Shown here piece after piece: positions 13,385 to 13,596 of a stretch of 64,000 nt of DNA; the stretch's first letter is position 1; every line of letters starts with the position of its first letter. Where the stretch lies: assembly GCF_003334385.1 (NCBI RefSeq), contig NZ_QOWN01000004.1; one strand, 5' to 3'. The notes beneath the pieces were generated by a model. That model was not told the origin of the DNA. It saw only the letters and a list, made by a program, of their open reading frames with translations, and did not search any database. The stretch is from Escherichia coli. Lineage in GTDB: Bacteria > Pseudomonadota > Gammaproteobacteria > Enterobacterales > Enterobacteriaceae. The translations under genes were made by a program, and so were the position numbers.

Positions 13385-13430
13385 ACAATAGCTCTCTTTT
13401 TTTGAATATTGTTTTCTAAGTGACAATTAG

Positions 13431-13474
13431 CTTGCGACGTGCCGCAAGAAAGATCAACCATCTGGTTGGTTGAT
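13431..13474. promoter_or_regulatory. Two palindromes in the divergent TetR/operon promoter region (candidate TetR operators)
   Basis: cttgcg-acgtgc-cgcaag (13431-13448) and atcaacca-tctggt-tggttgat (13453-13474) lie in the 212-bp gap between the divergent SDR and TetR starts. Confidence 0.45.
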
Positions 13475-13596
13475 ATGCGATAGTGATCACAGGACATTTG
13501 ATAACTTGATGAAAGTACAAGTTTTTATCCTTTTTACTGGAGCTTCTAATTAATCGGGTTAAGATAGTTATCTTGAAGAGGTCGTGGGGAAGCGTT

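Follow-up and report, generated by a model that had tools for sequence, protein, structure and literature searches.

A conserved palindrome predicted to be the operator of the TetR family regulator YtfA at the promoter of an accessory Escherichia coli operon

INTRODUCTION

RutR is a TetR family regulator of Escherichia coli. The RutR box, TTGACCAnnTGGTCAA, is a palindrome of the ACCA...TGGT type, at least 16 bp long, through which a catabolic operon is controlled. Within the same family, Bacillus FadR (YsiA), KstR2, and Thermus PfmR are local repressors of CoA-dependent catabolic operons and are released by a CoA thioester. A different comparison is offered by lac-type class I promoters, where a weak sigma-70 promoter is combined with CRP near −61.5 and a substrate-responsive repressor. 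The result is dual control, through an inducer and through catabolite repression.

Here, we analyzed a 64,000-nucleotide stretch of E. coli DNA (contig NZ_QOWN01000004.1, referred to as the window), which is 99.9% identical to E. coli chromosomes. It carries an accessory operon divergent from the gene for a full-length TetR family regulator, YtfA. Our literature search found no description of a YtfA operator, of YtfA function, or of the pathway encoded by this island.

RESULTS

An accessory eight-gene operon is divergent from ytfA

The accessory segment of the window lies between rplI and ytfB. An SDR gene and the TetR gene are divergent there, with a minus-strand ATG ending at 13384 for the former and an ATG at 13597 for the latter. 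Both start positions are the same in the RefSeq annotation of an identical strain, in agreement with the first-pass annotation of the window, which had described a divergent regulatory region of 212 bp. The features of the locus are as follows.

4461-13384, minus strand: eight closely spaced genes forming the presumed target operon (from annotation with intergenic gaps of at most 52 bp, NCBIfam matches, and the open reading frame list)
12593-13384, minus strand: SDR gene, first in the operon
13385-13596: gap between the divergent SDR and TetR starts, 212 bp
13597-14244, plus strand: ytfA, full-length TetR family regulator of 215 amino acids (TetR/AcrR family regulator in RefSeq) and presumed operator binder

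The SDR gene is followed in the operon by genes for a TIM-barrel "sugar phosphate isomerase/epimerase," an enoyl-CoA hydratase, a fused CoA-transferase, and an FrdA-like FAD oxidoreductase, and then by the small permease, large permease, and binding protein of a TRAP transporter. At the far end of the regulator gene, ytfA (plus strand) and ytfB (minus strand) converge, and their 3′ ends share 17 bp (window 14228-14244).

The SDR-TetR pair is present in about 3,131 of 5,426 complete E. coli genomes, and the island operon is also found in Salmonella, Citrobacter, Klebsiella, and others. K-12 carries yjfZ and a 402-bp ytfA pseudogene, a 3′ fragment, in place of the island. Thus, the regulator is YtfA, and its control region is absent from K-12. 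In MG1655 (4426628-4428095), yjfZ replaces the whole island together with the 5′ part of ytfA. The ytfA remnant is even shorter in O157:H7 and many other strains, where only query positions 1253-1548 are left.

YtfA consists of an N-terminal TetR_N domain (Pfam PF00440; residues 19 to 61, E = 3e-14) and a C-terminal TetR_C_29 domain (PF17938; residues 83 to 201, E = 4.4e-30). Its closest solved structure is 3npi, an uncharacterized structural genomics entry (E = 1.7e-16, residues 14 to 207). Neither the profile nor the structure comparison gave a close homologue that has been characterized.

Orthologous TetR loci came from two sources, a collection of species-representative genomes and contigs that encode specific homologues. 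The enteric part of the synteny set comprised E. whittamii, E. albertii, Citrobacter, Klebsiella spallanzanii, Salmonella, Leminorella, Lelliottia, and Entomohabitans; six further metagenomic or unassigned loci encode TetR proteins that are 57 to 67% identical. All of the enteric and metagenome loci keep the gene order SDR-TIM-hydratase-CoA-transferase, with the TetR gene divergent from it. So does the alphaproteobacterium Pseudovibrio, whose TetR protein is 45% identical. In metagenome-assembled genomes of Acidobacteria (TetR 43% identical), the hydratase and CoA-transferase genes are retained, and the SDR-like match is weak and partial.

The palindrome at 13453-13474 is conserved as sequence

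Two palindromes in the gap had been picked out in the first-pass annotation, which proposed both as likely TetR operators. Both are exact, and an inverted-repeat search lists both.

13431-13448: palindrome 1, CTTGCG-N6-CGCAAG (cttgcg/acgtgc/cgcaag), nonconserved and mostly within the 17-bp promoter spacer
13453-13474: palindrome 2, the predicted YtfA operator, a 22-bp palindrome ATCAACCA-TCTGGT-TGGTTGAT with its dyad between 13463 and 13464
13456-13471: core of the predicted operator, AACCA-N4-GT-TGGTT

We compared the two repeats with 5,000 dinucleotide-preserving shuffles of the 212-bp gap, allowing spacers of 0 to 12. Arms of at least 8 bp occurred in 3.7% of the shuffles, which makes palindrome 2 mildly unusual on sequence alone. 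Arms of at least 6 bp occurred in 45%, and palindrome 1 is therefore at chance level.

We then aligned 18 gammaproteobacterial SDR/TetR intergenic regions, from Enterobacterales and related metagenomes, and repeated the alignment with more E. coli lineages (14 regions). Mean column identity in the 18-region alignment was 61%, and the invariant or near-invariant columns clustered in four blocks.

13429-13434, minus strand: CAnnnT
13452-13460: GATCAACCA
13465-13471: GTTGGTT
13476-13489: TGnGA-N6-TCA

Since conserved columns fall in the blocks of palindrome 2, this palindrome is conserved as sequence. Its core, AACCA-N4-GTTGGTT, is invariant in all 18 regions and also in the 14-region alignment, while the flanks diverge; the consensus reads ATCAACCAwhtrGTTGGTTrrT. 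The distance from the operator to the SDR start codon is constant at 66 to 73 nt. The intergenic region of Entomohabitans teleogrylli (L008 3578-4000) is 423 bp long, versus about 210 bp elsewhere. Its extra DNA is GC rich and lies between an AT-rich block and the ytfA promoter, so that the arrangement of the operator and the neighboring CRP-like box is untouched.

A position weight matrix was built solely from ten nonredundant gammaproteobacterial sites. In the 64-kb window, it scored 33.4 bits at 13453, and the next unrelated match scored 9.9 bits. Scanning the window for AACCA-N6-TGGTT with one mismatch gave five matches, a number reached by 5% of shuffles. Two of these one-mismatch matches, at 6856 and 6994 in the TRAP permease gene, were considered as further operators and rejected, as they are within chance expectation.

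Across 15 sites from syntenic clusters, mean symmetry was highest for the 8-6-8 dyad between 13463 and 13464, which is also the one in the first-pass annotation (0.74 over 11 pairs). Shifting the dyad leftward by 2 bp still gave 0.64, because TGGT is repeated. On this comparison, the site of the predicted operator appears established, and its dyad register is ambiguous.

The operator motif accompanies the TetR gene across phyla

We scanned 23 distant loci of about 8.6 kb each, whose TetR homologues are 34 to 46% identical. In 23 of 23, the top matrix match (14 to 29 bits) fell within about 250 bp of the TetR gene. Shuffles of seven distant loci gave mean maxima of 5 to 9 bits and a highest value of about 20 bits; two Pseudovibrio scores (14 to 18 bits) are within reach of these shuffled maxima. 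The motif lies between the TetR gene and the divergent operon as ATCAACCAACTGGTTGGTTACT in the Acidobacteria loci and as ATTAACTATCTGGTTAGTTAGT in the Pseudovibrio loci. Relative to E. coli, the Pseudovibrio operators carry C3T, C7T, G16A, and G20A, which form two compensated pairs about the 8-6-8 dyad, and the recognition helix is KNMLYHY in Pseudovibrio versus KQTVYHH. One metagenome locus (L056 2794-3000; TetR 59% identical) carries the genuine operator motif twice; the second copy adjoins the −10 and overlies the predicted operon transcription start.

More remote relatives (34 to 42% identical) from Belnapia, Sneathiella, Oceanibaculum, Tistrella, Ferrovibrio, and related genomes (L015 to L033) have a NitT/TauT-type ABC transporter and an amidase as neighbors. 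In these alphaproteobacterial relatives, the motif is (A/G)TCAACC-N4-GGTTGA(T/C), with arms 4 bp closer than in E. coli, and it typically occurs once 13 to 55 bp upstream of the tetR start and once 12 to 100 bp after the stop. Together with the ambiguous register, this closer spacing of the arms would fit more than one half-site definition and stoichiometry.

What we observe directly are the features in the sequence, how well they are conserved, and the pairing of the motif with the regulator gene. The TetR homologue is the only gene always found beside the motif, and this is the strongest available argument that YtfA would bind it. We conclude that the palindrome at 13453-13474 is very probably the operator of the divergent YtfA, placed on the promoter of the SDR-led eight-gene operon.

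It could be argued that the conserved box is bound by another factor or is a mere part of the promoter, a −35 with an UP element, and that YtfA acts elsewhere. The box does contain the −35-like TTGATC. However, promoter elements are not expected to recur as a 16- to 22-bp palindrome in Alphaproteobacteria and Acidobacteria, nor are they expected on both sides of tetR homologues whose neighbors are unrelated. With the TetR homologue as the motif's sole constant companion, we consider this explanation unlikely.

The predicted operator covers the −35 of a putative weak, potentially CRP-dependent promoter

The gap sequence contains conserved −35/−10-like hexamers and a conserved CRP-like box, none of which had been seen in the first-pass annotation.

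13452-13457, minus strand: predicted −35 TTGATC, overlapping the left operator arm and conserved as GATCAA on the plus strand
13429-13434, minus strand: predicted −10 CAAGCT (CATCTT in most relatives), assigned by conservation, matching the consensus at 2 to 3 of 6 positions
13476-13491: CRP-like box TGCGA-TAGTGA-TCACA (TGCGATAGTGATCACA), centered at 13483.5, one mismatch to TGTGA-N6-TCACA
13492-13545: conserved AT-rich block, with the CRP-like box on one side and the ytfA promoter on the other (columns A119, A120, T126 to A128, and T147 to T150)

The spacing from TTGATC to CAnnnT is fixed at 17 bp in every gammaproteobacterial orthologue, while the sequence of the spacer varies. Within the predicted −10, columns A45 and T49 are invariant and G50 is near-invariant in the 18-region alignment, and all three are invariant in the 14-region alignment. 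These columns correspond to T-7, A-11, and C-12, and the sequence around them is variable. From this arrangement we infer that operon transcription would start near 13422, giving a 5′ untranslated region of about 38 nt. A consensus promoter scan found no promoter here. The poor −10 explains this empty scan and fits with activator dependence.

The CRP-like box retains the critical G and C positions of a CRP site. In 14 of 14 nonredundant gammaproteobacterial regions, the best CRP-like match is unique, has 0 to 2 mismatches, and lies 19 to 20 bp from the operator center; columns T92, G93, G95, T103, C104, and A105 are invariant or nearly so. The box is absent from the Pseudovibrio and Acidobacteria regions compared. 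There are only two CRP-like sites with one mismatch in the 64-kb window, the other being TGTGATGAACTTCAAA at 2715-2730, between yjfY and rpsF. Given a start near 13422, the center of the box would fall at −61.5, the classical class I position. In a class II layout, CRP would be at −41.5, the −10 would be GATCTT at 13450-13455, and the operator would lie between them. This layout is less likely, as T-7 of GATCTT is not conserved in three to four orthologues, whereas A-11 and T-7 of CAnnnT are invariant.

The AT-rich block (TTGATAAC..ATGAAA..GTTTTT..CCTTTTT) is conserved across Enterobacterales. It could be an UP element or the site of another regulator.

Taken with the class I layout, the placement of the operator over the predicted −35 makes repression of the operon well supported by the sequence. 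The first-pass annotation had suggested that the operon is repressed through an operator overlapping its promoter, and that suggestion is supported for palindrome 2.

Palindrome 1 is not conserved, and autoregulation of ytfA is not indicated

Palindrome 1 is intact in 1 of the 18 aligned orthologues, the window-type E. coli, and broken in the other 17. It is already broken in E. coli strains E69, S65EC, MDP9-27, and SCPM, as well as in E. whittamii, E. albertii, and all of the more distant loci. An exact 32-mer spanning it was found in 1,301 of the approximately 3,131 island-carrying genomes. Counts from such 32-bp megablast queries, as used for operator conservation within E. coli, are only partly informative, because variants in the flanks break the 28-bp seed.

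The region of palindrome 1 was also considered as a sigma-54 promoter. The GG-N10-GC pattern (−24/−12) is not conserved, with the GG absent in Salmonella, Klebsiella, and others, and this candidate was rejected. The sigma-54-like sequence itself, GGCAC...AAGCT on the minus strand (window 13435-13450), is confined to window-type E. coli, and we judged it coincidental.

The ytfA promoter lies on the other side of the gap.

13560-13565, plus strand: predicted ytfA −10 TAAGAT (TATGAT or TATAGT in relatives), with T176, A177, G179, A180, and T181 invariant in the 14-region alignment

This hexamer is about 31 nt before the ytfA start codon, and more distant gammaproteobacterial loci have TGnTATAGT at this position. 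The TAAGAT of window-type E. coli, against TATGAT or TATAGT nearly everywhere else, may be a down-mutation of the ytfA promoter. Close to this −10 there are also an AAGATA-N2-TATCTT palindrome and GATAGTGATC/GATAGTTATC repeats, which are not conserved and were set aside as candidate sites.

We asked whether both palindromes could be YtfA operators, serving repression of the operon and autoregulation of ytfA, as the first-pass annotation had proposed. Each is a perfect inverted repeat with a spacer of 6 bp, and only 4 bp lie between the two. Moreover, tandem operators are used by some TetR regulators, and the metagenome locus described above has two copies of the motif. However, palindrome 1 is dissimilar to the conserved motif, is missing in 17 of 18 orthologues and in several E. 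coli lineages, has arms of a length expected by chance, and receives no score from the operator matrix. About 100 bp separate the ytfA −10 from the operator, and the matrix scan found no second operator-like site near it, in the gap, or elsewhere in the 64-kb window. Autoregulation is thus unsupported in the enteric loci, in contrast to the alphaproteobacterial relatives, where a site lies just upstream of tetR. We regard a role for both palindromes as very unlikely: of the two operators proposed, palindrome 2, which is conserved and follows the regulator across phyla, stands, and palindrome 1 was rejected. By its distribution, palindrome 1 has arisen by chance in some E. coli lineages, and autoregulation of ytfA through these sites is not indicated.

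It is also very unlikely that palindrome 2 is an RNA hairpin, a terminator or attenuator on the minus-strand transcript. It does resemble a minus-strand terminator in a consensus scan, and its RNA would fold at −11.9 kcal/mol (z = −2.9). However, there is no upstream minus-strand gene to terminate, the stem and loop are conserved as sequence and not merely as pairing across three phyla, the motif tracks the TetR gene whatever its neighbors and either before the tetR start or after its stop, there is no meaningful Rfam match, and with a start near 13422 the palindrome would not be transcribed.

DISCUSSION

We return to palindrome 2 as the predicted YtfA operator. From sequence comparison we infer that YtfA would bind this site, where the promoters lie, what part CRP plays, and what type of molecule may act as inducer; together these suggest a mechanism. 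On the minus strand, the CRP box would lie near −61.5 and the operator from about −52 to −31, with TTGATC in the promoter-proximal operator arm. In the absence of inducer, YtfA on the operator would deny both sigma-70 region 4 and the alpha C-terminal domain of RNA polymerase access to the −35 region and to CRP. A metabolite of the pathway, perhaps the carboxylate that is imported or its CoA thioester, may bind the TetR_C_29 domain and release YtfA; release by the substrate or its CoA ester, as the first-pass annotation had suggested, is a reasonable idea. After release, cAMP-CRP would be needed to activate the weak promoter. Because both the release of YtfA and CRP would be required, we propose that the operon is both substrate induced and catabolite repressed.

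The genes of the operon give weak leads to the substrate. The TRAP binding protein is closest to the solved structures 4ovr, 4x8r, 4n8y, and 4n15 (E = 1e-66 to 1e-71), which we take to be hexuronate binders. The TIM-barrel enzyme matches uncharacterized structures only, and the FrdA-like flavoprotein of 693 amino acids has no solved relative at an E value of 1e-10. It is a reasonable guess, and no more, that the substrate is a carboxylate resembling a sugar acid or a cyclitol and that it is processed in the form of a CoA ester.

More tentatively, and with some doubt on our part, ATCAACC-N4/8-GGTTGAT may be the signature operator of an uncharacterized TetR_C_29 subfamily that extends over several phyla. 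In E. coli, it might mark a CRP-dependent, substrate-inducible operon for an undescribed CoA-dependent carboxylate pathway, consisting of the TRAP transporter, CoA-transferase, hydratase, SDR, TIM-barrel enzyme, and FrdA-like flavoenzyme, that is carried by roughly half of sequenced strains and has been lost from K-12. If this is true, the operator and its repressor could serve directly as a reporter or biosensor in the search for the substrate. In a strain that carries the island, a reporter driven by this promoter and operator would offer the shortest route to the inducer and hence to the pathway.

The regulatory logic proposed here, a local TetR repressor combined with CRP on a catabolic promoter, is textbook. 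What is new is a precise and testable predicted operator for an uncharacterized regulator of an accessory E. coli operon. Like RutR, YtfA is a TetR family protein with an ACCA...TGGT-type palindrome in the control region of a presumed catabolic operon, and RutR is among its weak N-terminal matches. This similarity is confined to the helix-turn-helix (E of about 1e-7 to 1e-9). The boxes differ, CAACCA/TGGTTG for YtfA against GACCA/TGGTC for RutR, and the YtfA arms are 6 bp apart in the enteric clusters. With its TetR_C_29 C-terminal domain and a score of 38 bits against a cutoff of 368, YtfA is not a RutR orthologue.

The likeness to the acyl-CoA-responsive repressors is of another kind. Weak similarity of YtfA to Bacillus FadR, KstR2, and PfmR extends for about 140 residues and takes in some of the ligand domain, and the operon that YtfA presumably controls has genes for a CoA-transferase and an enoyl-CoA hydratase. 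However, these matches (E = 1e-5 to 1e-12) are far below the family cutoffs, and the operators differ. Furthermore, the alphaproteobacterial relatives of YtfA lie beside an amidase and an ABC transporter, with no CoA enzymes, so that a CoA ligand does not follow for the subfamily.

The closest architectural parallel to the predicted promoter is the lac-type class I promoter, as conservation points to the same combination of a weak sigma-70 promoter, CRP near −61.5, and a substrate-responsive repressor, and hence to the same dual control. The two differ in where the repressor would bind: lac O1 is downstream of the transcription start, whereas the predicted YtfA operator lies between CRP and the −35 and overlaps the −35.
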